DNA from: Thermoflexales bacterium | Lineage (GTDB): Bacteria; Chloroflexota; Anaerolineae; B4-G1; SLSP01 | Reading direction: 5' to 3' | Assembly: GCA_007125545.1 (NCBI GenBank) | Contig: SLDA01000197.1 | Location: 1-52,885 of the forward strand | Length of the DNA stretch: 52,885 nucleotides | In this document: in pieces, positions 1,923-41,163 of the stretch | Position numbering within the stretch: the first letter of the stretch is position 1 | How the letters are laid out: the number at the start of each line of letters is the position of its first letter | Translations under genes and position numbers: made by a program | The notes under the pieces: model-generated | The model's database searches: none | What the model was told of the DNA's origin: nothing | Seen by the model: the letters and a program-made list of their open reading frames with translations, nothing else

Positions 1923-1937
1923 ACTGGTAACGGTAAC

Positions 1938-2659: not shown

Positions 2660-3067
2660 CTATTCTTCATCATCCTCGTCGTCATCGTCAAGATCGTCAT
2701 CTTCGTCATCATCATAGTCGTCGCGTCTTGTGGGGAGCGTCGGCAACTCGACCGGTTCAGCCCCCGTGGGGATAGGACCTTCCGTACGGGTGATCAAGTG
2801 CCGAAGGATCTCTTCAACGATGCGAAGATTTTGATCCAGATCGTTGATCGCCTCGGGGTCTGCTGCGAAGTGTACTAAGTAGTAACGACCTTCACGCTGT
2901 CCCTTGATTATGTAGGCCAACCGCCGCATTCCCCAACTCTTAAAGCTGAGTACCTCGGCGCTTATACCTTCCAAATACCGCTGAACACGCTCGACTAGGG
3001 CCTCAAGCCCTTCCTCGCTTAGTTCAGGACTAGCAATAAACATCAGTTCGTAGTTTCGTGTTTCCAA
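2660..3067 (-). CDS. rpsF: 30S ribosomal protein S6 with an encoded poly-acidic C-terminal tail
   Basis: The sequence contains RNYELMFIASPELSEEG...WGMRRLAYIIKGQREGRYYLVHF. It has a TTG start with GGAGAGGAGG about 13 nt upstream. The last 22 residues are almost all D/E. Confidence 0.93.
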   Translation of the reverse strand: METRNYELMFIASPELSEEGLEALVERVQRYLEGISAEVLSFKSWGMRRLAYIIKGQREGRYYLVHFAADPEAINDLDQNLRIVEEILRHLITRTEGPIPTGAEPVELPTLPTRRDDYDDDEDDDLDDDDEDDEE

Positions 3068-3697: not shown

Positions 3698-3704
3698 AAT
3701 CCTT

Positions 3705-3732
3705 ATCTTACCGTATACGGCACTTTCGTCAA
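3705..3732 (-). promoter_or_regulatory. Putative rnpB promoter TTGACG-16-TAAGAT
   Basis: On the minus strand TTGACG is at plus 3727-3732 and TAAGAT is at plus 3705-3710. This places the transcription start about 7 nt downstream, at the start of the predicted P1 helix. Confidence 0.5.
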
Positions 3733-3741
3733 CCAGAGCCG

Positions 3742-7389: not shown

Positions 7390-7401
7390 AGATCATGTCG
7401 A

Positions 7402-7704
7402 TCAGTGTCGAATGCGGAAAGTACGATCTTTGCCGGTAGGTTCAGTCCAGTCGAGCTCTACGCGTTCTACTTCGCCATGGCCGGGACCCTGACGAACCTT
7501 TTCGATGAAAGAGCGGAGCCGATTCTCCTTACCCTCTGCCCAGATATCCACAGCGCCGTCGGCGCGATTACGCACCCAGCCATAAACGCCCAGCCGCTGG
7601 GCCTGGGTCCGCGTGAAATACCGGAAGCCAACACCCTGCACACGTCCGTGTACGGTCATTGACACAGCTTTCTGCTCGCTTGTCACGTCATCTGATGTGC
7701 TCAT
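7402..7704 (-). CDS. acyP: Acylphosphatase
   Basis: VHGRVQGVGFRYFTRTQAQRLGVYGWVRNRADGAVDIWAEG is the acylphosphatase signature. The true start may be the internal Met at MTVHGRV. Confidence 0.9.
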   Translation of the reverse strand: MSTSDDVTSEQKAVSMTVHGRVQGVGFRYFTRTQAQRLGVYGWVRNRADGAVDIWAEGKENRLRSFIEKVRQGPGHGEVERVELDWTEPTGKDRTFRIRH

Positions 7705-7856
7705 AGGTTAACCCCTTCCCTTACCTGCCATGATTCTAGCCAACTCCGCGTGGCTGGCAAGTCACAAGCCGCGGTCCAGTAGCGTGCTGTTTGCTCTTGC
7801 GCCTCTGGGACTGCCAACCGACCGAGTCTTTTGTCAGGTATCAGAAGCTGGCTATA

Positions 7857-9104
7857 ATGGACAGCCATATGGACGCACACAGTCCTCTGGTGGTGTTCAA
7901 TGCTCACTTGCTTGCTCGCGACGCTTCGTACCGAAGCGCCGGTATTTCCGTTTATATCGAGAGCTTGCTGCGTGAGCTTAGCGGCGCTGATTACGGCCTG
8001 CGTCTTCGCGTCTTGCTGGGCAAGGATGCCGGACCGCTTGAATTACCTGTCGGCCTCGGGACTCCGGAGCAGCCGACCATAACCGCTGAGACGAAGTCGC
8101 GACTCCCTACGGGGCGTGCGTGGCAGCGGGTGCTGTGGGAGCAGACCGTTTTGCCTGTGCGACTGCGACAGATGACCGCCGACCTCGTGCATGCTCCTGC
8201 TTTCATCAGTCCTCTGGCGGCCAACTGTCCTGTGGTCGTTACCGTACCCGATCTCAGCTTCCTGCGCTATCCGCAGTTCTTTCGCCGTGGGAATCGGCTC
8301 TATCTGCGGACTTTGACAGGCGTGGCATGTCGTCGCGCTGCCGCTGTCATCGCCCTTTCGAAACACACCGCGCAGGAGGTGCATCGTCTGCTGGGGATTC
8401 CGGAGTCGCGGATCTTTACCGTATATCCCGGTGTGGCGCCCCGCTTCCGCCGGCTGCCGGCTGAGCAGGTAACGCGTTTCCGGCAGGAGCGTGGGTTGCC
8501 CGATCGTTTCATTCTCTATCTTGGGACGCTTGAGCCGCGCAAGAATCTGATCCGGTTGGTGCGGGCCTTTTCCCGGCTCCGTGACCCCGATCTCCATCTC
8601 GTGCTGGCTGGAGCAAAGGGGTGGTTCTACGAATCGGTCTTTGCCGAGGTTGAACGGTTGGGGCTGGGCGCACGCGTGCACTTTGCCGGCTATGTTCCGG
8701 CTGAAGAGCAGGCTTTCTGGTACAATGCGGCCCATGCATTTGCCTATGTTTCCGTCTATGAAGGATTTGGGATGCCGGTTCTGGAAGCATTGGCTTGCGG
8801 TATCCCCACTGTCACATCGACCACGACCTCACTCCCAGAAGCTGGCGGTCCGGGCGTGATGCTCGTCTCGCCCGACGATGAGGTTGCACTTGCCGACGCC
8901 TTGAATAACGTACTTAATGATGCTTCTGCACGCGACGCGCTGCAGGAAGCTGGCTTGCGTCACGTGGCAGGATTCACCTGGGAGAAAGCGGCACGTCAGA
9001 CGGCGGATGTGTACCATCTTGCACTGGCCCGGTCTCGCACGACGTTCCGTCGTCCGCCCGCTCTTGAGCCAAATCCTGATGATCCGATCATCGAAACGAG
9101 GTAG
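7857..9104 (+). CDS. Glycosyltransferase family 4 (GT-B, RfaG-like)
   Basis: LGTLEPRKN ... YVSVYEGFGMPVLEALACGIPTV is the GT1/GT4 EX7E region. I prefer the ATG at 7857 (MDSHMDAHSPLVVFNAHLL) over the track start at 7791. Confidence 0.85.
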   Translation: MDSHMDAHSPLVVFNAHLLARDASYRSAGISVYIESLLRELSGADYGLRLRVLLGKDAGPLELPVGLGTPEQPTITAETKSRLPTGRAWQRVLWEQTVLPVRLRQMTADLVHAPAFISPLAANCPVVVTVPDLSFLRYPQFFRRGNRLYLRTLTGVACRRAAAVIALSKHTAQEVHRLLGIPESRIFTVYPGVAPRFRRLPAEQVTRFRQERGLPDRFILYLGTLEPRKNLIRLVRAFSRLRDPDLHLVLAGAKGWFYESVFAEVERLGLGARVHFAGYVPAEEQAFWYNAAHAFAYVSVYEGFGMPVLEALACGIPTVTSTTTSLPEAGGPGVMLVSPDDEVALADALNNVLNDASARDALQEAGLRHVAGFTWEKAARQTADVYHLALARSRTTFRRPPALEPNPDDPIIETR

Positions 9105-9110
9105 GCTGAC

Positions 9111-10532
9111 GTGAGAGCAAATCATCGAGATAGCGCCCCCTGGTGGGTGATCGTCCTAGATATCGTCATGGTCAACTTGGCGATGGGATTGGCCTATGTG
9201 CTGCGTTATCGGCTCCAGTGGTTTCTTGACGTTGTCTTTGATGCTCCGTTCGTCGCCTACCTACCCTTTAATGCGATTTTCTCGATTAGCGTGCCTCTCG
9301 TCCTGTGGGTCACCAAGTCATATCACAACTGGCGTGGTCGTGTGTGGCTGGAGCACGTGTTCCAGGTCGTGAACGCCGTCGCCATCACACTCATCCTGGC
9401 GTTGGCGTGGTCTTTCCTGGTACGCCCCCTGGTCTACTCACGGCTGCTGTTGTTAGAAGGTGCGATATTCATGATTGGGCTAATCTCACTGGATCGGTTT
9501 GTGGCTCAAATGGTGCAGACGCAGTTGCGCCGGCGCGGTATAGGGCTCAAACGGATCGTGATTGTCGGCGCCGGGGAGGTGGGGCGGCGGGTGATGCGCA
9601 CGATAGTAGCGCGCCGTGACTTGGGCTATGAGGTGGTGGGATATGTCGATGATAATCCGGACAAGGGTTATGGCAACATTGGACGCTTCTGCGGGTTGGG
9701 CTCCATCGACAATCTCTCCAGCGTCATCGATGACGAGGGTGTCGATGAAGTCATTATCACCCTCCCGTGGAACTACCATCGGCGTATTCTGAGCGTGTTG
9801 CGTGCTTGCGCGCGCCGGCAGGTCAAAGCCCGGTTGGTGCCCGATCTGTTTCAGATGAGCTTGAGCCGGGTTGAGGTGGGAGATTTGGGTGGCTTACCTC
9901 TGATTGAGATTCAAGAGATTGCCTTTGGCCCCTTGGAGCTGACCATCAAGCGTATCATTGATATGGTCGGGGTTGCAGCCGGCGTTTTTCTGGCTTGGCC
10001 TCTTTGGGCATTGATCGCGGTCCTGATAAAGTTGGATTCGCCTGGTCCCATTCTATTCAGCCAGGAGCGCGTTGGGCAGGGCAACCGTCTTTTCCGTATC
10101 TACAAATTCCGAACGATGCGCGTCGGTGCGGAATCGGAGCTAGAGGGGCTCCGCGGTTACAACGAAGCTGACGGACCTTTGTTCAAGATTCGCAATGATC
10201 CTCGAGTTACCCGTGTCGGTCACTTTCTCCGCCGGACCAGTCTGGATGAGCTTCCCCAACTCATCAATGTCCTGCGAGGAGAGATGAGTCTCGTAGGCCC
10301 TCGGCCACCGCTGGCTGCAGAGGTGGAGCAGTACCGTCCCTGGCATCGCAAGCGCTTGAGCGTGCCCCCAGGCATGACCGGCCTTTGGCAAGTTAGCGGA
10401 CGCAGTGAGCTTACCTTTGACGAGATGGTCCTGCTGGACCTATATTACATCGAACACTGGTCTCCTTGGTTGGATGTAGTCGTACTCTTACGAACGGTAC
10501 CGAAGATTCTCGCGTGGGATGGCGCTTACTAG
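9111..10532 (+). CDS. Polyprenyl-phosphate glycosylphosphotransferase (WbaP/EpsB-type sugar transferase)
   Basis: There are N-terminal TM helices and a central Rossmann-like region. The C-terminus reads [26 protein letters not shown] ... [21 protein letters not shown]. It has a GTG start with GAGGTAGG upstream. Confidence 0.9.
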
Positions 10533-21552: not shown

Positions 21553-21718
21553 ATCAAGGATGAAATTGGCGATTTCCTACGCTGAATCGTGTGCAAAATC
21601 ACTGATCCGGTGAGTTGCGCAAACCTGCAACTCACGTATACTCGAACCATAGACCGGTGAATCGTCCCTGATTCCGCGTTGTCGCACTTGTTGATTCAAG
21701 GCGTACTATGAGACCACG

Positions 21719-24700
21719 ATGATTGGAAGACCGACCGAACGCACCTACCTGGCCGAGCTTCGTCGCATACTGGTGCAGCGCTTCAGCATCAGCGAATTGC
21801 GGACCATCTGTTTCGATCTTGGTATCGATGCCGAGAGTGTTACTGTGGGTGACTTCGGCGGCGGACCGATCAAGCCCAATTTGGTGCACGGCATGCTTGA
21901 CCATCTTGAGCAGCGCCGTCGCATCCCCGAACTCGTCACTTACATTCGCGGCGTGCGATCAGATCTGCTGACTGAGCTGGCTGCTTATGATAGCAAGCCG
22001 GTGGGTCCCAGCCCCTCCGCATCCCCTGGTGGTCACGCGGCAACACCGCTCTCTGATGCGATCGAACGGGATAATCGGCTCTTCGCGAAGCAGTGGCCGG
22101 AACTTGCAGTCCCATACTCGCCCCAGGGCGGGTTACCCGAGCCCGAGAGAGCGTGGTCGTTTGACATGCCTGGACAACCGATGGCTGCCCCGGTGATTTT
22201 GGGCCAGACTTGCCTGGTGGCTAGCCAGGAGTCGGGTCGGCGTAGCCGCGGTGCGGCCCTGCGGGCCTTTGACCTGGCTCAGGGCACCGTTCTTTGGGAG
22301 CATCGCTTTGAAGACGCTGTGGTTGCCGGTCTAACGCGCGCTTCTGAGACTCAAGCTCTTCTCAGCCTGCCAAGTCTTGGAGGAGATCTCCCTGCGTCTC
22401 TTGACCGGGAACAGGCGTCGTCCGATAGTGCGCTGGTGGCGGTGAGCCCGGCTGGGCAGCTCATCTGGTACAGCGAGTTGGATGCTCATCAAATCTCGGC
22501 ACCCGCCGCAGGTGGAGGACTGGTCGTCGTCACCGGGAGTCGTCGCGATGTGCTATTGTTCGACCTCGGAACGGGACACGAACTCGCGGCGGTGGAACTG
22601 CCGGTCGATGTGGCGCTGGTAGCGCCGGCTTGCGACCGTGAGGGTGCTTATATTCCCTGCCGAGCACCGACACTATTGGCGATCGACTGCCAGGGTGATC
22701 TCCGCTGGCGTTATGATGTCGAAGGTGTACTTGCGGGGGTACAGTTCAACCAGACGCCACTTCTCGTCTCCGAGCTTGTCATAGCAACCCTGAGTTCGGG
22801 TACGGTCGTGGCTCTCTCCCGTGAGACTGGTGCCCTTGTCTGGGAAGCCCGGGTCGGTCCACGGAGCAAGCAGTTGACTGTGCCGGTCTCGGATGGGCAA
22901 CGTGTGTATGTTGGTGCGCGCGATAGCGTTGTCGCGCTCGATCTAGCTACCGGCCGCCGAGTGTGGACCTTTCAGACCGGTGTTTATGTGACGGCATCGC
23001 CGGTACTTGCAGGAGATTGGCTGTGCATTGCCGGTCACGACCGGCACCTCCACGGTCTAGCTCATCATACAGGTACGGTGGCTTGGAGAGTCGCGCTGCC
23101 CCAGGAGATCAAGACGGCGCCGGCCTTGGCCGGTGGCGATCGAAATGGGCCCTACGCCGTTGTGGTGGATTGCACAGGTAGCGTGACTTCGTTTGCTTAT
23201 CCTGTTCCCGCATACGAGCACGAGCTAGCGAGACGATGGGAGAAGGCTGCTGCCGCGTGGGTTGCGGCAGGAGATGCCCGCCGTGCGGCCGAATCTTGGA
23301 TCCGTTGCGCCGAGCACGCTGCTGCCGATGCGGCTAAGCATCCTACTGAGCAGATCGTTGACGCTCAAGCTCGGGCTTGGATGGCGGCGGCGGAGCTCTT
23401 TGAGACGGCAGGGGCGGTAGGTGAAGCGGCACAGGCGCGTCACCGCCATACGGAGCTGCTGGGGTTGCCCGACATTGTGGCCGAGGTGCGGCATGATGGC
23501 CTGGCCTTGAGTGCGTGGTCCACGTTGGTTTTCACGGTCCGGAATAGAGGCTACGGAATAGCCCGAAATCTGGTCATCCGCCTGGCAGGGGAGCAGTTTG
23601 CATGGGAAGCCGGCGCGCCATCGACCTTAAGTGTTGAAATAGCAGAGATGCCGGTACTCGGGGCTCTGGCTGCAGGCCAGGAGCACACACACCGGGTGAG
23701 TGCACAACCCCTCGCTCATGGCGACCAGGTGCCTCTCGCTGTTCAAATCACGTATCTGGATCGGAATGGTGAGCCTCATCGCCAGGACGAAACGCTCTAT
23801 CTAAGAATCGCCCGGGATGCAGTCCAAAGTATTCCCGAGATCTTGCCCTTCGCTCCCTATGCCGGGATGGCTCCCATCGTGTTGGCCGACACGGCAGAGG
23901 TACGCCGCTCGGACTGGGGAATGAGTCTCTCCTCCGGCCTTCCTCCGGTCCTTGATCTGGAGATCCGGGTTGGACGGGGTTCACAAGATTACTCGGTGGA
24001 GTTGACGTTAGGCCGCGGCGCCGGATTTCCGCTACAGGTCTTTGATGGGTCACATATGCCGCTCTCTATCGTAGAGTGGCAGCCCAGCGGGGATTTGGGG
24101 CGGGATGGCCGAGAGCTTTTTGAGGCGCTTTTTCGTGATGCGGCTGTTCGCAAGGGATGGCACGTGGCTCGCGGGCAGGCCGAATTTCGTGATGCCGTGC
24201 GCCGGATTCGGCTACGCATTGATGATGCAGCGTCTGAGTTGTGCCGCTTGCCCTGGGAGTTGCTCCATGAAGACGAAGTGATGCTCACTGCCGGTGCCTC
24301 TACACCCTTCTCCCGTTACATCCCGGTAGACAAACCCTGGGGGCGCTCGGTGAGCACCTGGCCTATTCGCGTCTTGGGCGTCGTCGCCAACCCCCGAGAT
24401 CTCCTGCAGCGCTACGACCTCGCCCCGATTGACGTTGCCCTGGAGAAGTACATTCTGGCGCGGGCGTTTGCCGGGATCGATGGACGGCGTATCAGGCTCG
24501 ATTTTCTCAAACCGCCGGTGACACTGGAGCGGTTGAGCCGCGCGATGTTGCGCGGGGGCTACAACTGGTTGCACTTCATTGGGCATACCCGACTTAACAC
24601 CCGCCAGGCTCGGGTGGATCTGCTGATGGAGGACGATCGGGGTGCGACGCGTGCCATCGCCGACCATCTCTTCTGTCGCATGCTTGCGCATCAGGGTGTC

Positions 24701-25009
24701 CAGCCGCAGTTGGTCTACCTGTCGGCCTGCCATAGCGCGATTGGGACGGGTGACAAGAGCTTGGGAGGGCTTGCGCCGAAGCTTGTTGAGATTGGCGTCC
24801 CTGCTGTGGTCGCGATGCAGGGCCGGGTACCTGTTCGTGTCGCGCAACGGGCGGCGCACATCTTCTATGCGGGGCTCGTGGACCACGGCTTCGTCGACCG
24901 TGCTATGAACGAGGCGCGCGCTGCGCTGCTAGCAGCCGAGCTTTCAGACGTTGCTGAGCCGGTCCTTTACATGCGACTACCCTCCGGTCGTCTATGGGAT
25001 GAGGCCTGA
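21719..25009 (+). CDS. EAD-like adaptor / PQQ beta-propeller / Ig-like / CHAT caspase-like protease fusion protein
   Basis: The N-terminus reads ERTYLAELRRILVQRFSISELRTICFDLGIDAESV. At least six propeller-blade motifs are present (GTVLWEHRF, GQLIWYSEL, GDLRWRYDV, GALVWEARV, GRRVWTFQT, GTVAWRVAL). The C-terminal CHAT dyad is LHFIGH(955)T and VYLSAC(1004)HS. There is no signal peptide or TM helix. Confidence 0.75.
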   Translation: MIGRPTERTYLAELRRILVQRFSISELRTICFDLGIDAESVTVGDFGGGPIKPNLVHGMLDHLEQRRRIPELVTYIRGVRSDLLTELAAYDSKPVGPSPSASPGGHAATPLSDAIERDNRLFAKQWPELAVPYSPQGGLPEPERAWSFDMPGQPMAAPVILGQTCLVASQESGRRSRGAALRAFDLAQGTVLWEHRFEDAVVAGLTRASETQALLSLPSLGGDLPASLDREQASSDSALVAVSPAGQLIWYSELDAHQISAPAAGGGLVVVTGSRRDVLLFDLGTGHELAAVELPVDVALVAPACDREGAYIPCRAPTLLAIDCQGDLRWRYDVEGVLAGVQFNQTPLLVSELVIATLSSGTVVALSRETGALVWEARVGPRSKQLTVPVSDGQRVYVGARDSVVALDLATGRRVWTFQTGVYVTASPVLAGDWLCIAGHDRHLHGLAHHTGTVAWRVALPQEIKTAPALAGGDRNGPYAVVVDCTGSVTSFAYPVPAYEHELARRWEKAAAAWVAAGDARRAAESWIRCAEHAAADAAKHPTEQIVDAQARAWMAAAELFETAGAVGEAAQARHRHTELLGLPDIVAEVRHDGLALSAWSTLVFTVRNRGYGIARNLVIRLAGEQFAWEAGAPSTLSVEIAEMPVLGALAAGQEHTHRVSAQPLAHGDQVPLAVQITYLDRNGEPHRQDETLYLRIARDAVQSIPEILPFAPYAGMAPIVLADTAEVRRSDWGMSLSSGLPPVLDLEIRVGRGSQDYSVELTLGRGAGFPLQVFDGSHMPLSIVEWQPSGDLGRDGRELFEALFRDAAVRKGWHVARGQAEFRDAVRRIRLRIDDAASELCRLPWELLHEDEVMLTAGASTPFSRYIPVDKPWGRSVSTWPIRVLGVVANPRDLLQRYDLAPIDVALEKYILARAFAGIDGRRIRLDFLKPPVTLERLSRAMLRGGYNWLHFIGHTRLNTRQARVDLLMEDDRGATRAIADHLFCRMLAHQGVQPQLVYLSACHSAIGTGDKSLGGLAPKLVEIGVPAVVAMQGRVPVRVAQRAAHIFYAGLVDHGFVDRAMNEARAALLAAELSDVAEPVLYMRLPSGRLWDEA

Positions 25010-25274: not shown

Positions 25275-28200
25275 ATGAGCGACGAATATCAACCTGACGA
25301 AGTCATGGAATCCCTACCCGAACCGGATGTAATGCCTGCCGAGCCGGTCGAGATTGGAGCACCCAAGTCCCAGGAGCCAACAGAGCCTGCAAGCTCTGTG
25401 CCGGCCTCCGCGGAATCTGCTGTCCCCAATATGGCATCTGGGAGCGTTGCCACCGCATCGCGCTCCGGGGGGGCGACCACTGTAGTAGCTGCGCCGGGTG
25501 CCGAAGCGGCGCCAGGACAGTCTTCCCGAGTTGGGGAAGTGGCAGATGAGGAGTTTGGGAATGGCAATCACCGCGGTGTGGACGATGGCCATGTGCTTGA
25601 GCCGAGAGTCGCAGCGGCAACGTCCGCGGATTCTACCCAGGCAGGTTCTTCATCCGTTGTCAGCCTGGCCGATCTCGAGAAGCCGCGACGCGAGTCGGTC
25701 AGTCCGGAACGAGTTCGTCCTGAGAAGGCAGAGAGCGAGCAGAAGCCGCCTGTGTGGTCGAGTGCGCTCGCTACTGCAAGATCGTTCTTGTCGGGGCGGG
25801 TCTGGATCGTTGGCGCCCTGATCGGAGTGCTGCTAATCATCTTACTCTTCGTGCCTCCCATTTCACTGGGTCAGCGCTTGGGTGCAATCGGGGGTGGCTA
25901 TACCACACTCGATAACCAAACACCGTCGGTAGAACATCCTGATGGGCTACGCGTTACCCGCACCGATACCAATGGCGCGCGAGTACGCATTAAATTAGCA
26001 TCGATTCCGCGTGCCGATTTTGTTGTGGGCAGCGTGTCCGAGGCGCTCGAAGCCGCAGTTACGACGATGCCGGACTATCTCGTTTCCAAAAGCCCTTACT
26101 ATACCCTCGATATCAGGGCCGACGGACCGGTGCCGGGTGTGATGACGGTGATGATTCCTAATGAAGCTGAACCGTGGGAGATGTTGGATCTCTATGCATG
26201 GGATGGTAGCGCGTGGCGTTGGTTGCCCACTCAGCTGGATCGTGAGGCTGAAACTCTCGTGTCCTCTGTCGACGCACTCCCTGAATCCGTAATAGTGCTG
26301 CAGAGCCAGACAAGTGGTCGCCGGGTTGCTGCCGAAACCGAGGTTTGGCCGGTTGAGGGTCTGGATGGGATAGCAGCTGAAGTCGGCATACCCGGCCTCT
26401 TGATCGGCACGATGGGTGGGACCACGGGGCAGGTGGGTGCCCTATCCTCCGACGGTGAGGGCACGTATGCCACACTAATCCCAATGATCCGTAACTGGCT
26501 GCCCGGTCGCGAACCGAACTGGGCACTAGTTAGTGATATGCTATCGATGGATACAGACCGGCAAGCACACACGACGAATCTTGTGAACCTGACGCAGCAA
26601 GGCGGATATGAGGGGCTGGTTGTTGACTACCGGCAGGTGCAGCCGCAAGATCGTGCAGCGTATGCTCAGTTCATCTCGGAGCTGGGCGCGGCCTTCAGGG
26701 CAGCCGGGCTTCGGCTTGGTGTGGTCGTCGATGCCCCGCAGCCTGTCGGGGACGGGACTTGGGATACTGGCGGCTATGACTGGGTTCGTCTTGGCGCTGC
26801 GGCGGATCAGCTCCGGGTCGTAATGCCCCTTCTGCCGGCAGCCTATGTGCCCGGCGGCGAGGTGGAGCAGTTGATGGAGTGGGCGGTCGGCCAGGTCGAG
26901 CGCCACAAGTTGATGCTAATCTATTCCACGCTGAGTTACAGCGGCGAGGAAGCGGTTGGCCTTGATAGCGTGTTGGCATCTGTTGGTGACCTACAAGTCA
27001 CCGGGACGCTGACCGAAAGTGTACTGCCCGGTACCAGGGTGGAGCTTGCCCTAAACGGCGCGGTAGCTATGGAGATTAACCCCATTACTGCGGCCACCCG
27101 CGTGAGCGCTGGCGGACAGGATTACTGGCTTGGTACGCCTCAGTGGTTGGGTGCACGTATGAATGTCGCCAATCGCTACCTGCTGGGTGGCGTTGTGCTG
27201 CGCGATCTATTCGATGCGCGCAATGTCGGGGATCATATGTCTGCGGTGTCGGCCTATCAGGATGGAGAGCTTGACGGTGTAGAGGATGCATCTGCTATCC
27301 TGGACCTGACCACCATTCTCTGGGCCGTAACCGATCCCCAAGGTCAGACCTCCGAGGTCCAAACGGACCTGAGCCGGCCCAGCTTTGCGTGGACCGCCCC
27401 CGAAATTACCGGCACCTATCGCCTGGCGGCAACCGTTGCCGGACTCGACAGAGGTTCGCTCGATATCACGGTCGCTGCGCCATCTCCCGTTGTGACGGAT
27501 ACGATGGCGATAGAAGAACCCGGCGGACCCGACGAGACAGAAGCCGAAGAGGGTGAGACAGCAGACGCCGCAAATCTGAGGGCCGCTTTCGTGGCCGACG
27601 TGACCGTGCCCGATAATACTCGCTTTGAGAAGGGTGAGGAGTTCGTCAAGACATGGCGCTTGAGGAACAGCGGCACCGGTGACTGGCCTGAGGAGATGGT
27701 GATGGCCTTTGTCAGTGGTGCGGAACTCGGCAAGGTCACCGAGGTCGAGGTCGGTGCGATTAAGGCCGGGGATACGGTTGATATCAGCGTTGATATGCAG
27801 GCGCCGGAGGAGGATGGCAGCTACAGGAGCGTGTGGGAGCTTCGGAAGGGGACGACGGGAGTCACCGGCGGTGGGGTGTTTGTCCTGATTCAGGTAGGTG
27901 AGCCCGTCGCTGCGGATCCGGAGACCCCTGCGGCAGCACCGCCTCCAGCGCCGCGCCCCGTGGCGTCCGGCGCCTTCGAGCTGGGTGGACACATTCGCAA
28001 CCTTGGCATCCCATATGCCGAACAGATGCGCCATTCTGGCATGACCTGGGTCAAAATACAGACTCACTTCGGACAAAGCGCCGCCAGTGCCATCGCCACA
28101 GCTCATGCTATGGGGTTCAAGATCCAACTGAGCGCCATCGGTGGACCCGGTATGGTGACCCAGCCGGGTTTTGAGGATAACTTCGCCGCCTGGGTGGGCC

Positions 28201-28892
28201 AGTTGGCAGCAGAGGGCGCTGATGCGATTGAGGTCTGGAATGAGCCCAACATCGACCGCGAGTGGGCGATCGGCCACATTAGCCCACAGGCTTACACGAA
28301 CTTGCTCTGCAAGTCCTATGCCGCTATCAAAGCCGCGAATAGTCGCACGGATGTCATCAGCGCGGCGCCCGCACCGACCGGTTGGTTCGGTGGTTGCGGA
28401 CCGAACGGCTGCGATGACAGACCCTGGATGCAAGGGCTTTACAATGCAGGGGCTGCCAACTGTATGGACTACATCGGTGCGCACCACAACTCGGGTGCAA
28501 CCTCGCCTTCAGCACGCGTTGGGCACCCTGCGAACCCAGGTGATACGCACCATTCCTGGTTCTTCCTACCGCAGACGGAGCTCTACTACAATATCTTCCG
28601 CGGCACCCGCAAGATCGTCTACACCGAGATGGGGTATGCCTCTCAGGAAGGTGTGCCCGGCTTCTCCGACCAGTTCGCGTGGGCGCGGGGGACCAACAAC
28701 GCACAGCAGGCGGCTTGGCTGGCGGAGGCGGTCCGTTTGAGCATCAATACCGGGATGGTTCGTGTCCTCATCGTCTGGAATATCGACTTCGGGCGCTTTG
28801 GCTACGACCCCCAGGATGGGTTCGCCATCATCCGTCCCGGTGGCGGCTGTCCCGCATGTGATACCCTGCACGGGGTACTCGGACGCCGGTAA
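25275..28892 (+). CDS. Membrane-anchored extracytoplasmic multi-domain protein: acidic/Pro-rich cytoplasmic N-terminus, one TM, GH18-like barrel (degenerate), NBR1/Ig-like domain, clan GH-A glycosidase-like domain
   Basis: I prefer the ATG at 25275, with GGAGGT 4 nt upstream. The TM helix is VWIVGALIGVLLIILLFVPPI. GH18-like: GYEGLVVDYRQV. NBR1-like: FVADVTVPDNTRFEKGEEFVKTWRLRNSGTGDWP. GH-A motifs: EVWNEPN and VYTEMGYA. Confidence 0.65.
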   Translation: MSDEYQPDEVMESLPEPDVMPAEPVEIGAPKSQEPTEPASSVPASAESAVPNMASGSVATASRSGGATTVVAAPGAEAAPGQSSRVGEVADEEFGNGNHRGVDDGHVLEPRVAAATSADSTQAGSSSVVSLADLEKPRRESVSPERVRPEKAESEQKPPVWSSALATARSFLSGRVWIVGALIGVLLIILLFVPPISLGQRLGAIGGGYTTLDNQTPSVEHPDGLRVTRTDTNGARVRIKLASIPRADFVVGSVSEALEAAVTTMPDYLVSKSPYYTLDIRADGPVPGVMTVMIPNEAEPWEMLDLYAWDGSAWRWLPTQLDREAETLVSSVDALPESVIVLQSQTSGRRVAAETEVWPVEGLDGIAAEVGIPGLLIGTMGGTTGQVGALSSDGEGTYATLIPMIRNWLPGREPNWALVSDMLSMDTDRQAHTTNLVNLTQQGGYEGLVVDYRQVQPQDRAAYAQFISELGAAFRAAGLRLGVVVDAPQPVGDGTWDTGGYDWVRLGAAADQLRVVMPLLPAAYVPGGEVEQLMEWAVGQVERHKLMLIYSTLSYSGEEAVGLDSVLASVGDLQVTGTLTESVLPGTRVELALNGAVAMEINPITAATRVSAGGQDYWLGTPQWLGARMNVANRYLLGGVVLRDLFDARNVGDHMSAVSAYQDGELDGVEDASAILDLTTILWAVTDPQGQTSEVQTDLSRPSFAWTAPEITGTYRLAATVAGLDRGSLDITVAAPSPVVTDTMAIEEPGGPDETEAEEGETADAANLRAAFVADVTVPDNTRFEKGEEFVKTWRLRNSGTGDWPEEMVMAFVSGAELGKVTEVEVGAIKAGDTVDISVDMQAPEEDGSYRSVWELRKGTTGVTGGGVFVLIQVGEPVAADPETPAAAPPPAPRPVASGAFELGGHIRNLGIPYAEQMRHSGMTWVKIQTHFGQSAASAIATAHAMGFKIQLSAIGGPGMVTQPGFEDNFAAWVGQLAAEGADAIEVWNEPNIDREWAIGHISPQAYTNLLCKSYAAIKAANSRTDVISAAPAPTGWFGGCGPNGCDDRPWMQGLYNAGAANCMDYIGAHHNSGATSPSARVGHPANPGDTHHSWFFLPQTELYYNIFRGTRKIVYTEMGYASQEGVPGFSDQFAWARGTNNAQQAAWLAEAVRLSINTGMVRVLIVWNIDFGRFGYDPQDGFAIIRPGGGCPACDTLHGVLGRR

Positions 28893-34085: not shown

Positions 34086-36149
34086 ATGCGGCCTATTTGG
34101 AGACGGCTTTGGCTTGTCACAGCGATTGTGTCTTTAATTGCCCTACCGGCAGGGTTAGCCGGTTTCACGATGTTGCTCTCTCTCTTCCAGAGGATATTTC
34201 CCTCTCTGTCAGCTGACCACATCTCGACTTCTCTCGGGGTAATCTCAGTCGTGGTGGGTGGGGTGCTTGCCTGGAACGCTAGGGCGGCCCCGGAAGTGGA
34301 TCGCCTTCCGATGCAGCTCCTCGATGATGTAAACTTCGTGCAACTCGTGGCCCTGGTGGCCCTTGCTGTCCTCTTTTTCGTGCTTACAGCGGCCATTGTC
34401 TATCTCCTGATTCGCCGCGGTCCCCGAAAGCATCAAACGGAAACCAAAACGGAAACCAAACGCGAACCCGCGTCCCCCGTTGTGCATAAGACGGGTACAG
34501 TGTTGAACGAGGGGCGCTATGTAATTCTCGGTCCGTTTACCCGAGATACACCTCTTCGGAAGACTGAGAGCGGTGCTTACGAAGTGCGGGCGACGACGTC
34601 TTTGAGTATCTGCCCGCGGTGCTACAGCTTGGTGGGGCGACACCTAGAGGCCGGTGCTGCTGAGTTCTCGCCGCTCTGTCCCGACTGCGGCGGGATCTTG
34701 TCTTATACGGAGGTAGCCGCTCACTTACAGATGCCGGCGAACAGTCCATCGGAGGAACCGACGTTGATCGCACGTGAAATCTCGGCCGAACGATTTGCAG
34801 CGCTCTCACAGCTGTTGGCTCGCAAGCTTGAGCACCGGGCCGTGGTGATGCCGCTGGATGCTTTCTCGGTTGCCGCGCCCGATGGCCCACGCTACTATCA
34901 GATCGAGCCCGCCATCTCCCACACCGTGGCATCGGAGATCGATATCCCTCAGGCCCTCGAACACCTTCTGGGGTGGGGAGAGTCCCTCGCTCATGGCCTG
35001 GCGTACCTGCATCATCATCAAATTGTCCTGCAGGCCGGTGCGCTGGCTTCGGGTGAGATCGGCGATCCCGCCGCGGCGGAGCAAGCCGCGAGTATGATCG
35101 TGGCTGACGGGTCTGAAGCCCGCTGGCTCTGCTTCGATAACGTTGGGCCAATGGTGCCCGATAACGAGCCCGAACTCCTTCGTATCTCTCGGCAGAATGT
35201 GCGCGCTCTGGCGGCATGTCTGCTGAAGCTGGCTACAGGTGAAACGGAGAGCGGCGCGTTGGACCGGTTGCCGGACCCCGTCAAGGTAACGCTCGGTGAG
35301 GCACTGTCGCACGACACGGTAACATCTGCAGCCGATTTCGCCACCCTTCTCGCACAGAACCGCCGGGAGCTGGCTTATCAGGAGCCCGTTCGCCTGAGGA
35401 TGGGAGCTCGATCAAACGTGGGGCGTGTGCGCAAACTGAATGAAGATAGCATGCTTGCCAAAGATTACTCTGACGTCTTTGGGGCGGTCAACCTCACGGT
35501 TGGTCTCGTTGCGGTCGCGGATGGAGTTGGCGGTAACTCCGCCGGGGATGTTGCAAGCCGCTTGACAGTCGAGGCTCTGGCCGATTTCGGTGACAGTTTG
35601 CGTCAAACCTCTGCGGAAGGGTATATGCCCGATCCCGAACCCTGGATTTCGCAGGCCGCAGCGGCGGCCAATCTTGCTGTATACCGGGAACGTCAAGCCG
35701 TCTCCAGCGATATGGGCTCTACCCTGGTGACTGCGCTTGTCGTCGGTAGCTCCGCTACGCTCCTAAACGTGGGAGATAGTCGTGGCTACCGGCTTGGACC
35801 TCAAAGCATTGAGCAGATCACCACGGATCACTCACTGGTGCAGCGCTTGATCGACATTGGGCAACTGACCCGTGAGGAAGCACGCCATCATCCTCAGAAG
35901 AGCATCATCTACCGCGTTATCGGGGATACGGCCGATCTCGCCTACGACACCTATGACGTGATTCTGCAACCGGGTGAGGCGCTTCTGCTCTGTTCGGACG
36001 GGCTCACCGATATGGTCGAGGACCACGTGCTGTGGCACGTATGGCGTACAGCGGCTTCGCCCGATGAGGCGTGCCGGCGTCTCGTAGGCCTGGCGAATGA
36101 AGCCGGCGGTTATGACAACATCACCGTTGTGATTGTACAGATTGCATAG
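34086..36149 (+). CDS. Membrane protein with pseudokinase-like domain (Zn-ribbon insert) fused to a PP2C Ser/Thr phosphatase
   Basis: There are 3 N-terminal TM helices. Kinase-like blocks lack the catalytic residues (LAYLHHHQIVLQAG in place of HRD; LCFDNVG in place of DFG). CPRC...CPDC forms the Zn-ribbon. PP2C motifs are GRVRKLNEDS, VADGVGG, GDSRGY, LLCSDGLTD and GGYDNITVVIV. Confidence 0.8.
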   Translation: MRPIWRRLWLVTAIVSLIALPAGLAGFTMLLSLFQRIFPSLSADHISTSLGVISVVVGGVLAWNARAAPEVDRLPMQLLDDVNFVQLVALVALAVLFFVLTAAIVYLLIRRGPRKHQTETKTETKREPASPVVHKTGTVLNEGRYVILGPFTRDTPLRKTESGAYEVRATTSLSICPRCYSLVGRHLEAGAAEFSPLCPDCGGILSYTEVAAHLQMPANSPSEEPTLIAREISAERFAALSQLLARKLEHRAVVMPLDAFSVAAPDGPRYYQIEPAISHTVASEIDIPQALEHLLGWGESLAHGLAYLHHHQIVLQAGALASGEIGDPAAAEQAASMIVADGSEARWLCFDNVGPMVPDNEPELLRISRQNVRALAACLLKLATGETESGALDRLPDPVKVTLGEALSHDTVTSAADFATLLAQNRRELAYQEPVRLRMGARSNVGRVRKLNEDSMLAKDYSDVFGAVNLTVGLVAVADGVGGNSAGDVASRLTVEALADFGDSLRQTSAEGYMPDPEPWISQAAAAANLAVYRERQAVSSDMGSTLVTALVVGSSATLLNVGDSRGYRLGPQSIEQITTDHSLVQRLIDIGQLTREEARHHPQKSIIYRVIGDTADLAYDTYDVILQPGEALLLCSDGLTDMVEDHVLWHVWRTAASPDEACRRLVGLANEAGGYDNITVVIVQIA

Positions 36150-36309
36150 GCCGTGTGGGGACGTCGGATGACGAAGCCGGGCGGCGGGTAGGTTCGCTCG
36201 TTCGTGTCTAACCGGAGCTCTGAAGAGTCTAGCACGGATCGCGCTGATCTTTGAGACATCATACGTAGTTACAAGAGAGCCCAGGCGGAGTAGAGGGAGG
36301 GGAGCGGCG

Positions 36310-38106
36310 ATGCTTGAATTCGGTTATGTGGTGCAGGAGCGCTATCGTATCGTACGGCTATTGGGACAGGGCGGAATGGGAGCTGTATACCGGGCCTGGG
36401 ATCTACGTCTCAACGTACCTATCGCTCTCAAGGAGCTGCGACCCCAGCCTGGCCTCGATGATGAAACTCTCGCCGGCTTGCGCCGGCGGTTTCAGCAGGA
36501 AGCCTCTGTCCTGGCACGGTTGATTCATCCCAACCTGGCGCGTGTTACAGACTACTTCGAGGAGCAAGGTAATGCCTATCTCGTGATGGATTATATCGAT
36601 GGGCGAAGCCTGGCTCACGTGATCCTCCAGGATGGCGCGCAGTCCGAGAGGAGGACAACGGAGTGGGCGCGACAGATCCTTGAGGCCTTGGCCTACTGTC
36701 ACGCCGAGGGGGTGGTGCATCGAGACATCAAGCCTCAAAACATCATTGTCCAGCCGAATGGCACGGTCACCCTCGTGGACTTCGGGCTCGTCAAGCTGTG
36801 GAATGAGGACGACCCTTCAACGCGTGCTGTGATGCGCGATATGGGGATGCCGGAGTATGCGCCGCCTGAGCAGTATGGCGTTAGCCATGACCACACTGGG
36901 CCGCCGAGCGATATTTATAGTTTGGGCGCCACACTCTATCATCTCCTTACAGGGCGGGCGCCTGCCACCGCCACAGAGCGGATGGCCAATCCGGAGGCTT
37001 TTGTGCCGCTGCGTCGTGTGGCGCCGCACGTGAGCGATCGGTTCGAGCAGGTGATTATGCGCGCGTTGGCGCTGTCCGTCAGCGACCGTTGGCAATCGGC
37101 ACGTGAGATGCTGGCACAGTTGGTCTCCGGACCGCTTCCTACATCCAGCACGGACGCCTACACACCTTCCGCGGTGAGTTCTCCAACACTACTGGCGCCG
37201 CCGGCAAGCCCACCCCTTGCAGGGCCTTCCCCTGTTGCAGGGCCTTCCCCTGTTGCAGGGCCTTCCCCTGTTGCAGGGCCGCCTCCTGCTGCAGGACCTC
37301 CTCCTGTTGCAGGACCTCCTCCTGTTGCAGGGCCGCCTTCTGTTCAGCCACAGGTGGCGCGGACTTCGTCTCCGCGTGCTCGTCGCTCGTCCCGCGCCTT
37401 AGTCCCGCTTTTCATCGGCGCCGGTCTGCTTGTCTGTCTCTTCGTGGCGTGCTTCGGCTTCTTCGTCGGTGCGCCGCTGGTCCAAGACTTGTTTGCGGAG
37501 CTTCCGGTGGCTGTGACACCATTTTCCGAGGATGTGTCGGTGACGACCTCGCCGGTAACATCGACACCCATCGGTGCGGTAGAGGCTCCGGTGGACGCTG
37601 ATTTCACGATCACGCTCCAGAACGATTCTCCGGACGAGGTGTGCTTCGTTCAGGTTTCGCCATCTGACAGCGACCACTGGGGCGAGGACTGGCTAGGGGA
37701 GAACATCACCATTGCCCCCTTGGGAGGGTTTTTCCACTTCGACTTGACGGAGGGGGTCTACGATGTTCGCGCGCAGCGATGCGATCTGACCACGATGGCG
37801 ACCTGGTGGCGTCTTGATCGCGATTCGAAGCTGCAAGTCGGAGCGACCGGGGCAACCGTGCGACTGCTCGTTCAGAATGATACCGGCGCGCAAATCTGTT
37901 ACCTCTATGTTTCACCCACGACAGCAGATACCTGGGGGCAGGATTTGTTGGGCGACATCGAGTCACTTTCATCTGGCAGCGCCCGTATCCTGTACCTGCG
38001 GCCCGGCAGCTATGATCTTCAGGTATCAGACTGCGACAACTACGTCCTCGCGGAAGAATATGGGGTGAACCTCGGGGAAGACACGACCTGGACGGTGTCA
38101 GACTGA
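36310..38106 (+). CDS. Ser/Thr protein kinase (Hanks type) with Pro-rich repeat linker, one TM and a duplicated extracellular domain
   Basis: Kinase motifs are GQGGMGAVYRA, IALKEL, HRDIKPQN, DFGL and EYAPPE. The (AGPSPV)n/(AGPPPV)n linker is followed by TM LVPLFIGAGLLVCLFVACFGFFV, then two ~85-aa repeats. Confidence 0.9.
   Translation: MLEFGYVVQERYRIVRLLGQGGMGAVYRAWDLRLNVPIALKELRPQPGLDDETLAGLRRRFQQEASVLARLIHPNLARVTDYFEEQGNAYLVMDYIDGRSLAHVILQDGAQSERRTTEWARQILEALAYCHAEGVVHRDIKPQNIIVQPNGTVTLVDFGLVKLWNEDDPSTRAVMRDMGMPEYAPPEQYGVSHDHTGPPSDIYSLGATLYHLLTGRAPATATERMANPEAFVPLRRVAPHVSDRFEQVIMRALALSVSDRWQSAREMLAQLVSGPLPTSSTDAYTPSAVSSPTLLAPPASPPLAGPSPVAGPSPVAGPSPVAGPPPAAGPPPVAGPPPVAGPPSVQPQVARTSSPRARRSSRALVPLFIGAGLLVCLFVACFGFFVGAPLVQDLFAELPVAVTPFSEDVSVTTSPVTSTPIGAVEAPVDADFTITLQNDSPDEVCFVQVSPSDSDHWGEDWLGENITIAPLGGFFHFDLTEGVYDVRAQRCDLTTMATWWRLDRDSKLQVGATGATVRLLVQNDTGAQICYLYVSPTTADTWGQDLLGDIESLSSGSARILYLRPGSYDLQVSDCDNYVLAEEYGVNLGEDTTWTVSD
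37219..37344 (+). repeat. Seven tandem 18-bp units (in-frame; encode AGPSPV x3, AGPPPA, AGPPPV x2, AGPPSV)
   Basis: gcagggccttcccctgtt occurs three times perfectly (37219-37272). It is followed by gcagggccgcctcctgct, gcaggacctcctcctgtt twice, and gcagggccgccttctgtt. Confidence 0.95.
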
Positions 38107-38146: not shown

Positions 38147-39811
38147 CTACTCTGGGTCTCGCTTGTCGGCCTTGAGTCGCTGCCGCAGCGCAGCGGCATG
38201 TGCTGCGGCAGCCTTGATCTCTTCTGATGTGAAACGATAGGTGCTGTAGCGCGCTGCGACGAAGGCTTCGGTCAGGCTGTCCAGCGCCTCCTGTTCCTCG
38301 ACCAAGTTCAGCATCAGCTTCTCGCGGTACTCGTAGGGGGTCTCGGTCGGGCGACGCCCCACGCCCCGTTCCTGCGCCTGATCCAGGGTTGTCAGATAAT
38401 GATAGATGATCTGCTCTCGCGGACTCCGACCTCCAGTTCGCGGTGTCCTGCCTTTTCCTCTGGATGCTGCGCTTCTCAGCCGTTGTACTAGCGCTGGCAG
38501 CGCGCCGGGAAGTTTGCTTCCCATCGTGCTCAACCAGTCACGGATCCCGCGCCAGGCCTGGTGGAGCCATTGCCAGGGCGCGAAGCGGCGGATGGTGTCC
38601 ATAAATCCGGGTCGGTCTCGGATATAGCTGCGGATCAACACGATGACGACGATGACCAGTGTGACCCAGAAAAGCACCGAACGTATCACGGCCCACCACG
38701 GACTTCCTTCCGCGCCCGCAGCCTCGGGTGGGGGGGCGAAGGGAAATTCCTCCATCTGCGGTGGTGCCATGCCTTCTGAGTTGCCCATAAAGAGTGAGAG
38801 CAGCATAATGAATGGCCAGAGCAGGATCAAATAGAGCAGCGTCGCGAGATAGCTGATCAGCATCAGGGCCATCGAGACTAAGTCCATAATGCCCACGGTG
38901 TAACCGGTGGGCAGCAGGAAAGCGATCAACGCGGCAACGGCTACAAACAGCAGAGTGAAACGCAGCCATGTGGGCGCCAGATTTGGGGGCATCCCCACTT
39001 TTTGGCGACTCCAGAGCGTCGTCAGCCGCAGCCACTGCAAGTGTCCCAGCATCAGAACCCCGAGGAAGAAGTAGAGGAGCACGTTCCCCACTGGCGTGCT
39101 GATGCGGGCGTGCGTCATCTGTAAGAAGCTTTCGACGTTCACCCGGTTCAACGCTGTGAAGATGATGAGAATCCCTCCCCCGAGGAAGTAACGGTTCACG
39201 ACCCGCTCGCGTGGATCGGTCTCTCCACTTCCTACTCCCATGGGGTCGATGAGTTCATCCATGTCGCGTGCCGTCATCCCCGCAGCTAACCAGCCCACCA
39301 CGCCTATACCATAGGCCACTAGCGAGCGGGCATCGAAGAAGGTCAGGGGGGAGTTGGCCCAGTTCTGAATCGCTTGTAGTAGTTGCGGCAAAGTGTCGCC
39401 AAGGTGGTTGAGCAGTTTGACGCCGAAAAATAGCAACGCCAGTTCGATAAGGCGTGCTCGCGTGGCATCGCCGCCACTGAAGATCCGGTTCTTCGCGAAG
39501 GGTCCGTGAAAACGGCGCTGTGTCTTGAATCCCACAAACGTCATCAGTATGGAAACGGCCCACACGAAGAGGGCCACGCCGAGTGGATCAGTCCCTTCGG
39601 AAACGATCAGGGGTGCGCTCAACTGCGCGACCGACCAAGTGATGCAGCCAATGAGGACCGTCACGATGGCAGGCTGAAACAGAGTGTAGACTAAGTTGTT
39701 CGGCGGTTCCTTTTCCTCCTCCTCTTCGCCTCTGCGGTTGAGGTAGTCATCGGTCTCCCGTACAACGACCCGGGATCCGCCAAAACGGGATCTATCTTCC
39801 TGCGGACTCAT
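38147..39811 (-). CDS. Polytopic membrane protein with C-terminal DUF4129-like domain
   Basis: 554 aa with about 10 hydrophobic helices. The C-terminus EQIIYHYLTTLDQAQERGVGRRPTETPYEYREKL...AFVAARYS resembles DUF4129. It is the last gene of the MoxR-DUF58 operon. Confidence 0.6.
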   Translation of the reverse strand: MSPQEDRSRFGGSRVVVRETDDYLNRRGEEEEEKEPPNNLVYTLFQPAIVTVLIGCITWSVAQLSAPLIVSEGTDPLGVALFVWAVSILMTFVGFKTQRRFHGPFAKNRIFSGGDATRARLIELALLFFGVKLLNHLGDTLPQLLQAIQNWANSPLTFFDARSLVAYGIGVVGWLAAGMTARDMDELIDPMGVGSGETDPRERVVNRYFLGGGILIIFTALNRVNVESFLQMTHARISTPVGNVLLYFFLGVLMLGHLQWLRLTTLWSRQKVGMPPNLAPTWLRFTLLFVAVAALIAFLLPTGYTVGIMDLVSMALMLISYLATLLYLILLWPFIMLLSLFMGNSEGMAPPQMEEFPFAPPPEAAGAEGSPWWAVIRSVLFWVTLVIVVIVLIRSYIRDRPGFMDTIRRFAPWQWLHQAWRGIRDWLSTMGSKLPGALPALVQRLRSAASRGKGRTPRTGGRSPREQIIYHYLTTLDQAQERGVGRRPTETPYEYREKLMLNLVEEQEALDSLTEAFVAARYSTYRFTSEEIKAAAAHAAALRQRLKADKRDPE

Positions 39812-39875
39812 ACTGTTCGATGGCTCATATCCATTAATGACTCAGACCTGTTGATAGCTTACCCCCATGGGTCAT

Positions 39876-41141: not shown

Positions 41142-41163
41142 AGCGTCTTCATGCTGCCACCGG

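Follow-up and report, generated by a model that had tools for sequence, protein, structure and literature searches.

Effector-associated domains (EADs) are short adaptors at protein termini that recruit effectors to a core component through homotypic interaction, and one of them, EAD7, has been reported N-terminally on STAND-FGS and TRADD-N proteins (PMC7159879, PMC8195603). A bacterial CARD-like domain has been found to be essential for protease-mediated effector activation (PMC10312443), and LypABC of Caulobacter represents a CARD-NLR-like system that has been co-opted for a host function (PMC13236601). HetF of Anabaena, a protease of the CHAT type, is a divisome component that cleaves PatU3 after Arg117 (PMC9457339, PMC8406250). 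Here we describe a gene from a Thermoflexales bacterium (Chloroflexota; Anaerolineae) located in a 52,885-nt stretch of contig SLDA01000197.1 (referred to below as the window). The gene (positions 21719-25009; Table 1) encodes a 1096-aa protein in which an EAD7 adaptor, a PQQ/BamB-type β-propeller, a TPR-like helical stack, an Ig-like β-sandwich, and a CHAT protease module follow one another on a single chain. The reading that we favor, and hold to be moderately probable, is that of a ligand-gated sensor-protease of the EAD/Death-like network that is NTPase-free in terms of the protein’s own domains; the evidence for it includes a wider family in which the same propeller-TPR-Ig module is joined to different effectors and adaptors.

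By analogy, the closest functional counterparts of the protein would be the EAD- or CARD-coupled proteases of the Aravind/Sorek type. As in EAD-coupled caspase/CHAT effectors (PMC7159879, PMC8195603), a terminal EAD, here EAD7, is combined with a caspase-superfamily effector; the host likewise belongs to a filamentous Chloroflexota lineage, and relatives of the protein use bDLD1, EAD8, EAD11, and TCAD2 from the same network. Unlike the EAD conflict systems, the gene has no VMAP, iSTAND, GAP1, or STAND core nearby, is fixed rather than variable between relatives, and carries a propeller-TPR-Ig module between adaptor and effector; in most relatives this module itself bears the EAD and is thus core-like. 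A PQQ-type propeller in this role is not mentioned in the main texts of PMC7159879 and PMC8195603 (0 occurrences of “PQQ”). The central P-loop NOD NTPase of STAND/NLR-like sensors (Avs, bNACHT, NB-ARC) is absent, as no P-loop NTPase domain or family was found in the 1096-aa protein by Pfam, NCBIfam, or PADLOC, and the gene does not form part of an adjacent set of MoxR, vWA, and EAD-bearing VMAP or iSTAND genes such as characterizes MoxR-vWA ternary conflict systems.

Other described systems share some of these parts. CARD-protease/NLR-like gasdermin systems (PMC10312443) also place an N-terminal Death-fold domain on a protease; however, gasdermin-type systems and LypABC use trypsin-like proteases, sense through a separate STAND ATPase with repeats, and are encoded by multigene operons, often in defense islands. 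HetF shares the CHAT His/Cys dyad and a filamentous host, but is membrane-anchored and lacks EAD7, the propeller, and the Ig module (PMC9457339). Csx29, the TPR-CHAT component of Craspase (type III-E CRISPR; PMC9729208), couples a helical-repeat module to a CHAT domain switched by a signal through conformational change, but it is activated via Cas7-11 and target RNA, has no propeller, Ig, or EAD, and was not detected by our sequence search of the PDB. The Apaf-1/caspase-9 apoptosome is built from the same parts (i.e., a CARD-like six-helix adaptor, a β-propeller sensor, and a caspase-fold protease), whereas our protein lacks the NB-ARC NTPase, has a PQQ/BamB-type rather than a WD40 propeller, and carries protease and sensor on one chain; the resemblance, drawn by analogy, would be a functional one.

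Domain Organization and Catalytic Site

The first start codon 3′ of the upstream stop is the ATG at 21719, and no other ATG, GTG, or TTG precedes the EAD7 match, which begins at residue 14; the proposal of the first-pass annotation that this is the only possible start therefore holds. The same annotation had described a 1096-aa open reading frame (ORF) without signal peptide or transmembrane (TM) helix, and this description is borne out: the ORF is real, the protein has no signal peptide because its N-terminus is the EAD7 domain, and a Kyte-Doolittle scan revealed no TM helix, with a single marginal 19-residue window at residue 348, within the propeller. The protein is thus a predicted cytoplasmic protein.

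The N-terminal module, initially suggested to be EAD/Death-like from its pattern of residues, matched Pfam PF19960 (EAD7) over aa 14-77 with 34.2 bits (gathering score, 32). Orthologues outscored it on this profile (e.g., 54.4 bits for L007), and a deeper, locally built EAD7 hidden Markov model (HMM) scored the protein at 76.9 bits. An AlphaFold2 model of aa 1-90, built from 65 diverse EAD7 sequences, presented six helices (pLDDT 82.8) at the protein terminus, as is characteristic of EAD7, a small, all-alpha, non-enzymatic domain. The best Foldseek match of this model in the PDB was the caspase-9/Apaf-1 CARD (probability 0.97; TM score 0.58 over 89 columns), followed by the CARDs of CARD8, caspase-1, NLRC4, ASC, and CARD9 and by the FADD Death domain (DD); the top matches were nearly all CARDs or DDs, with TM scores of 0.55-0.62 over 82-89 of the 90 modelled residues. 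By ranking and TM score, though not by E-value (0.3-7), the predicted fold is CARD-like, and the domain is modelled as a CARD-like terminal adaptor on a flexible tether.

The propeller gave the highest-scoring Pfam match of the whole protein (PQQ_2, 87.4 bits) and was the only region to match in a PDB sequence search with the 1096-aa protein, where BamB and PQQ-like propellers were recovered and no solved relative of the CHAT module was found. The propeller called at first pass was thus confirmed, while the count of at least six blade motifs was not: the strict G-x-[LVI]-x-W motif occurs five times (residues 189, 246, 326, 371, and 452), and a sixth (GRRVW at 412) is found only under a relaxed definition. 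In shuffled sequences, the mean number of strict matches was 0.48 and the highest was 4. The motif spacing, together with W146 and a degenerate GHELA at 286, suggests an eight-bladed propeller. Source databases name the protein and its family “PQQ-binding-like beta-propeller repeat protein”, “outer membrane protein assembly factor BamB”, or hypothetical, and these names, together with the strength of the PQQ_2 match, would speak for a BamB-like outer-membrane assembly factor or a propeller protein of the PQQ-dependent dehydrogenase type. We consider such an identity hardly credible. The scores fall far below the equivalog cut-offs for BamB (TIGR03300, 91.3 vs. 285.2; NF008351, 55.8 vs. 423) and for PQQ-dependent (alcohol) dehydrogenases (TIGR03075, 24.9 vs. 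480), there is no signal peptide or lipobox, and two thirds of the protein consist of other domains, including an intact protease; membership scores and architecture together refute the label.

The region between propeller and protease (aa 490-745) was modelled with AlphaFold2, with pLDDT values of 92-98 for most of the segment. The model showed helical hairpins at approximately aa 498-581, an all-β sandwich at approximately aa 586-711, and a disordered segment at approximately aa 715-745. The helical segment noted earlier after the propeller hence takes the form of a TPR-like stack, over which weak SNAP/TPR Pfam matches were found in this protein and in its relatives. The sandwich, previously called Ig/CARDB-like, retrieved generic Ig-like/E-set domains in Foldseek (i.e., TRAP-beta, RhoGDI, and the AP2 appendage), along with the CARDB structures 3idu and 2kl6; the CARDB domain of PF1109 is among the matches.

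The C-terminal module matched PF12770 (CHAT) over aa 797-1073 with 73.4 bits (gathering score, 24), and alignments with CHAT paralogues begin at aa 743-746. An intact catalytic dyad had been annotated as His955/Cys1004; the dyad and Cys1004 stand, but nt 24581-24583 encode Gly955 and the histidine is His956. His952, His956, and Cys1004 are invariant in all 15 full-length orthologues, and the His956/Cys1004 dyad is kept in each of the 24 wider sensor-CHAT representatives that cover it, so that the clan CD active site is predicted to be intact. With this correction, and that of the blade count, profile matches or structural models bore out every domain call of the first-pass annotation. Among CHAT paralogues in Chloroflexota, the nearest are CHAT-SIR2 (the commonest), SIR2-CHAT, and CHAT-STAND-TPR proteins. 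In the three loci scanned (L012, L017, and L024), the CHAT paralogues are ~680 aa long and pair SIR2_2 with CHAT in either order; some 30 further Chloroflexota loci carry CHAT paralogues of similar size, and some metagenome-assembled genomes (MAGs) have two copies (L019 and L020). We know of no characterization of a CHAT-SIR2 fusion.

A Propeller-TPR-Ig Family with Exchangeable Outputs

A profile of the TPR-Ig core (aa 490-715, alignment A5) was searched against 1.84 billion representative proteins; the segment from our protein is the first sequence of A5 and is therefore a family member by construction. The search yielded 672 representative clusters at E ≤ 1e-3, 278 at E ≤ 1e-10, and 90 at E ≤ 1e-30, with an orthologue (P0006) scoring 336.8 bits. 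Architectures were assigned with local HMMs to the top 148 of the 672 clusters. Among these, the commonest form was propeller-core-EAD7 (33 representatives and 13 fragments), followed by propeller-core-CHAT (21 representatives and 3 fragments), while 50 representatives carried the propeller-core with another tail. The layout of our protein, with N-terminal EAD7 and C-terminal CHAT, is rare in the family (3 representatives).

The tails, as assigned by Pfam, include Mrr-type restriction endonucleases (Mrr_cat; P0159 and P0173), TIR (TIR_2; P0238), trypsin (Trypsin_2; P0170), bDLD1+EAD11 (P0169), bDLD1/EAD8 with a C14 caspase (Peptidase_C14; P0187), EAD7 with a C14 caspase (Peptidase_C14; P0162), and TCAD2 (P0280); a vWA fusion (P0293) was also found. 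Individual proteins and loci show EAD7, sensor, and CHAT in every combination, with a propeller-TPR-Ig module and a C-terminal EAD7 without CHAT (P0017-19), sensor-CHAT without EAD7 (L009 and L010), EAD7-CHAT alone (L051), and the full EAD7-sensor-CHAT (L007). Across metagenomes, the propeller-TPR-Ig module is thus the constant element of the family, to which outputs attach. According to PMC7159879 and PMC8195603, a constant module combined with interchangeable toxic effectors or Death-like adaptors is the organizational signature of conflict systems, and the occurrence of this sensor with polymorphic death effectors and Death-like adaptors elsewhere lends independent support to the initial suggestion of a conflict module. 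PADLOC recognizes the effector tails only and never the sensor; sensor-only relatives gave no matches. In P0222, a distant member of the family, a single chain carries N_BRCA1_IG, five copies of EAD7, and the sensor core.

Several sensor relatives are associated with Ser/Thr kinases. Among non-syntenic relatives, a kinase gene is immediately adjacent to the sensor gene in L083, L010, and L093, overlapping it by 4 nt in the last of these, and lies one gene away in L009; kinase genes near sensor relatives are often fused to FGE-sulfatase. In P0165, an N-terminal Ser/Thr kinase domain (Pkinase, Pfam) is fused to the sensor itself. Hanks-type Ser/Thr kinases with PQQ propellers (AfsK type; PDB 7eq5) have the same type of propeller as our protein, which differs from them in lacking a kinase; within the window, the closest kinase gene is found at a distance of 11 kb. 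Adjacency, overlap, and fusion point to phosphorylation control of the sensor family.

EAD7 Contexts and Candidate NTPase Partners

The first-pass annotation had noted that no STAND NTPase partner is present in the window. This is correct for STAND NTPases, and no second EAD7 is present either, but a MoxR AAA+ operon does occur (Table 1). An EAD7-tagged effector might dock on a separately encoded EAD7-bearing NTPase (i.e., STAND/NB-ARC or MoxR-vWA) and thus be NTP-dependent, with the propeller module acting as a substrate-recognition or secondary regulatory part. This alternative, which partly overlaps with the reading that we favor, follows from the EAD principle, under which the core bears one copy while effectors, in some cases encoded at other genomic sites, bear further ones (PMC7159879, PMC8195603). 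In line with it, a 117-aa EAD7 gene in L090, located after SurA-SSB-S6, is followed directly by a gene for a 942-aa NB-ARC+TPR+TM+FN3-like protein (7001-10209 for the pair), and in L086 (Anaerolineaceae) a standalone EAD7 gene lies directly upstream of MoxR-DUF58-DUF4129, the gene set also found in the window. In the window, SurA-SSB-S6 is followed by the RNase P RNA, whereas L090 carries the EAD7-NB-ARC pair at this point. In this lineage, EAD7-STAND units hence behave as accessory insertions, unlike the gene studied here.

Against docking, a search with the deep EAD7 HMM, run without filters over 262 kb (the window plus orthologue loci, 13 in number), found no second EAD7 on any ORF, hence no further local copy on a core component; this includes the MoxR, DUF58, and DUF4129 proteins of the window, which are encoded on the other strand, 13-17 kb from the gene and not adjacent to it. 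EAD7-MoxR adjacency was seen in L086 only, one of five EAD7 contexts sampled, and was rejected as a general rule, remaining a weak lead. In addition, sensor-CHAT proteins without EAD are common (21 representatives as well as L009, L010, and the syntenic L006), so that the sensor-protease unit would work without docking, and the commonest family form bears EAD7 on the sensor, casting the sensor as core rather than cargo. We therefore rate the docking model, including the subordinate role that it gives to the propeller module, as rather unlikely, if still to be taken seriously.

An EAD7-only profile search of a database of 5.8 billion proteins returned short proteins only (64-138 aa) and no multidomain EAD7 partners. 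At least one such “standalone” match (P0084) is a fragment of the frameshifted orthologue L088. In both L088 (7001-9045) and L008 (9953-13049), frameshifts break the orthologue up into an “EAD7-only” fragment and additional pieces, and some standalone EAD7 database entries are therefore assembly or pseudogene artefacts. Three EAD7 genes occur in L087. The sole viral match lies in L095 (4989-5414; IMG/VR IMGVR_UViG_3300035136_000050, classified as viral), where a 141-aa protein combines EAD7 (83.9 bits) with a hydrophobic C-terminal helix (TM tail); its gene sits between those for a TM-rich small protein and a C39-like peptidase (Peptidase_C39_2). A role as phage decoy or as an adaptor linked to lysis is conceivable for this protein, which brings to mind the CARD-only inhibitors that phages have for the gasdermin system of Lysobacter (PMC10312443).

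Conservation and Syntenic Context in Anaerolineae

Fifteen full-length orthologues (49-62% identity) present the same five-part architecture, and those bearing source names are Anaerolineae MAGs. Mean pairwise identity is 53-67% across all domains; only the linkers (aa 89-145 and 701-744) are variable (24-26%). The gene lies in a conserved block with genes for GH35, CysK, CysE, a HAMP-GAF-PAS histidine kinase, and an HD protein on one side, and for an N_BRCA1_IG (NBR1_IG) membrane protein, Obg, MFS, and PPIase on the other, and this block, from GH35 to PPIase, recurs in orthologue loci. No anomaly of composition or GC content was found for the gene. Within this Anaerolineae clade, the gene is chromosomal, fixed, and inherited vertically. 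Even conservation together with fixed synteny suggests a domesticated role and not that of a fast-evolving defense gene; it probably derives from a conflict system and has been domesticated (“institutionalised”), as opposed to being a mobile defense gene. One syntenic orthologue (L006, 1370-4204) begins at the propeller, without EAD7 and the first linker, and has a GH130-like gene upstream in place of the HD gene; this represents a natural loss, or non-acquisition, of the adaptor, and EAD7 is therefore dispensable in that lineage.

The same setting could be expected of a HetF-like housekeeping or developmental protease of filamentous Anaerolineae, which would cleave one or a few regulators in growth, division, or differentiation and have no role in conflict or death; the propeller-TPR-Ig module would select substrates or localize the enzyme, and EAD7 would be a docking site. 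Besides a single-copy gene fixed in a housekeeping block across the clade, with evenly conserved domains and normal GC content, this alternative can draw on HetF (NF045509) being the best NCBIfam domain-level match of the CHAT module and a known regulator-cleaving protease (PMC9457339, PMC8406250), and on LypABC as a precedent for host co-option (PMC13236601). However, the match to HetF is at the domain level only, with the CHAT part alone aligning at 75 bits (equivalog cut-off, 1200), and HetF has a TM anchor and neither propeller nor EAD7. Moreover, the sensor relatives bear TIR, Mrr, caspase, and trypsin, and the CHAT paralogues are of the CHAT-SIR2 and CHAT-STAND types, which are typical of conflict systems. 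Its architecture occurs in a single clade and thus does not represent a general housekeeping function. To our knowledge, no housekeeping role has been described for an EAD7-propeller-CHAT architecture. A HetF-like role, with the functions that it would assign to sensor and adaptor, appears unlikely to us.

Proposed Mode of Action

If the protein is a ligand-gated, NTPase-free sensor-protease, the propeller-TPR-Ig module would serve as both receptor and autoinhibitory or regulatory unit that, at rest, holds the protease inactive. Binding of a ligand or partner protein to this module, or phosphorylation by an associated Hanks-type kinase, might then release the protease, while EAD7 would drive homotypic clustering, either among copies of the protein or together with further EAD7-bearing proteins. 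The CHAT domains may thereby be activated by induced proximity and cleave cellular substrates, probably after a basic residue by analogy with HetF and other clan CD enzymes, with growth arrest, cell death, or a developmental switch as the possible outcome.

Several observations weigh against this reading. The gene is found amid housekeeping genes and not in a variable defense island; its position in the syntenic block is fixed and all of its domains are evenly conserved, the propeller being like the other domains in this respect (59% mean identity), with no arms-race hypervariability. PADLOC-DB v2.0.0 gives only a marginal SAVED_CHAT match (E = 0.0065, 13.4 bits). The 52.9-kb window and the sequence within 10 kb of 13 related loci contain no further EAD7, and the pairing of EAD7 genes with NB-ARC+TPR and MoxR-DUF58-DUF4129 in L090 and L086 makes “NTPase-less” a provisional label for the system. 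The E-values of the Death-fold matches in Foldseek (0.3-7) are not significant, the support for a Death fold coming from ranking and TM scores only. The sensor family itself is known from sequences and models alone, and activation of CHAT by induced proximity is an idea borrowed by analogy from caspases.

Features of the Gene and Neighboring Genes

The coordinates of the features discussed here are collected in Table 1. A TACTAT hexamer resembling a -10 element had been noted 9 nt before the ATG and is indeed present there; nevertheless, a sigma-70 promoter scan called no site upstream of ATG 21719, TACTAT included, and the orthologues have no common hexamer at a fixed distance from the start, i.e., the position of TACTAT is not conserved. 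A terminator scan found none after the gene. These scans speak neither for nor against the near-leaderless mRNA suggested at first pass.

Downstream of the gene lies that for the large N_BRCA1_IG membrane protein, whose true start is the ATG at 25275, preceded by a GGAGG Shine-Dalgarno sequence, and not the TTG at 25134. Along all or most of its sequence, this protein shows 55-63% identity in nine of the syntenic orthologue loci checked, including L081 and L006 though the upstream neighborhood differs in these two. Being always adjacent, it was considered as an operon partner and rejected because of a 265-nt gap, its own Shine-Dalgarno sequence, a TGTGATAGAAT-like element, and the synteny of the block as a whole. 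A 215-aa ORF (3354-4001, forward strand) overlapping the RNase P RNA is spurious.

Table 1. Positions of the gene, its predicted domains and residues, and other features in the window (52,885 nt).
Feature	Position (nt)	Strand	Residues	Remarks
SurA-SSB-S6 genes	667-3067	-		
RNase P RNA, bacterial class A	3188-3687	-		258.7 bits
Putative -10-like hexamer TACTAT	21704..21709	+		9 nt upstream of ATG 21719
Complete ORF	21719..25009	+	1096 aa + stop	EAD7 - propeller - TPR-like stack - Ig-like sandwich - CHAT
EAD7 adaptor domain	21740..21982	+	8-88	Pfam PF19960; predicted six-helix CARD/Death-like bundle
Variable linker 1	21983..22153	+	89-145	24% mean pairwise identity; indel-rich in orthologue alignment
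PQQ/BamB-type β-propeller	22154..23203	+	146-495	PQQ_2 87.4 bits; PDB sequence matches; blade motifs
TPR-like helical hairpin stack	23210..23461	+	498-581	AlphaFold2 pLDDT >90; fragment helices H9-14 to H78-92
Ig-like (E-set/CARDB-like) β-sandwich	23474..23851	+	586-711	AlphaFold2 model; Foldseek
Disordered variable linker 2	23861..23950	+	715-744	Sensor/protease boundary; pLDDT <50; 26% mean pairwise identity
CHAT (caspase-like, clan CD) protease module	23951..24997	+	745-1093	PF12770; paralogue alignments; NCBIfam
Predicted catalytic His956	24584..24586	+	956	Motif GH(G/T)R, invariant
Predicted catalytic Cys1004	24728..24730	+	1004	Invariant
N_BRCA1_IG membrane protein	25275-28892	+	1205 aa	Downstream gene
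PP2C phosphatase and Hanks-type Ser/Thr kinase	34086-38103	+	687 aa; 598 aa	9-13 kb downstream of the gene
MoxR AAA+/DUF58/DUF4129 operon	38147-42171	-		AAA_3 208.7 bits; bpMoxR 36.5 bits vs. cut-off 27

Implications

The EAD concept, EAD7, and EAD-caspase fusions have already been published. The apparent novelty lies in the role of the propeller-TPR-Ig module, as a core that is free of NTPase and has polymorphic outputs, and in its fixed single-chain variant, as judged against the main texts of PMC7159879 and PMC8195603 rather than the full supplementary tables of PMC7159879. Death-fold and EAD signaling in bacteria and animals is built around NTPase hubs (i.e., STAND/NLR proteins, Apaf-1, and MoxR-vWA), while the hub in the present case is apparently NTPase-free. 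A bolder version of our reading, which we put forward as speculative and quite improbable, is that the propeller-TPR-Ig module represents a new class of nucleotide-independent intracellular receptors that activate death effectors by CARD-like EAD polymerization, the protein described here being a single-chain, apoptosome-like switch domesticated in a clade of filamentous Anaerolineae for programmed cell death or the control of development; if true, bacteria would have a route of death-fold signaling that needs no NOD or AAA+ NTPase.

The sensor family is currently mis-annotated as BamB or PQQ-binding proteins. Should the module prove to be a genuine receptor, bacterial innate immunity would gain a new class of sensor, and the protein would offer a minimal one-protein model for the interplay of a CARD-like domain, a sensor, and a caspase-like protease. 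With the Anaerolineae orthologues, there would be an example of a multicellular bacterium that has a conflict-type module fixed in its core genome, which bears on the question of institutionalised programmed cell death.

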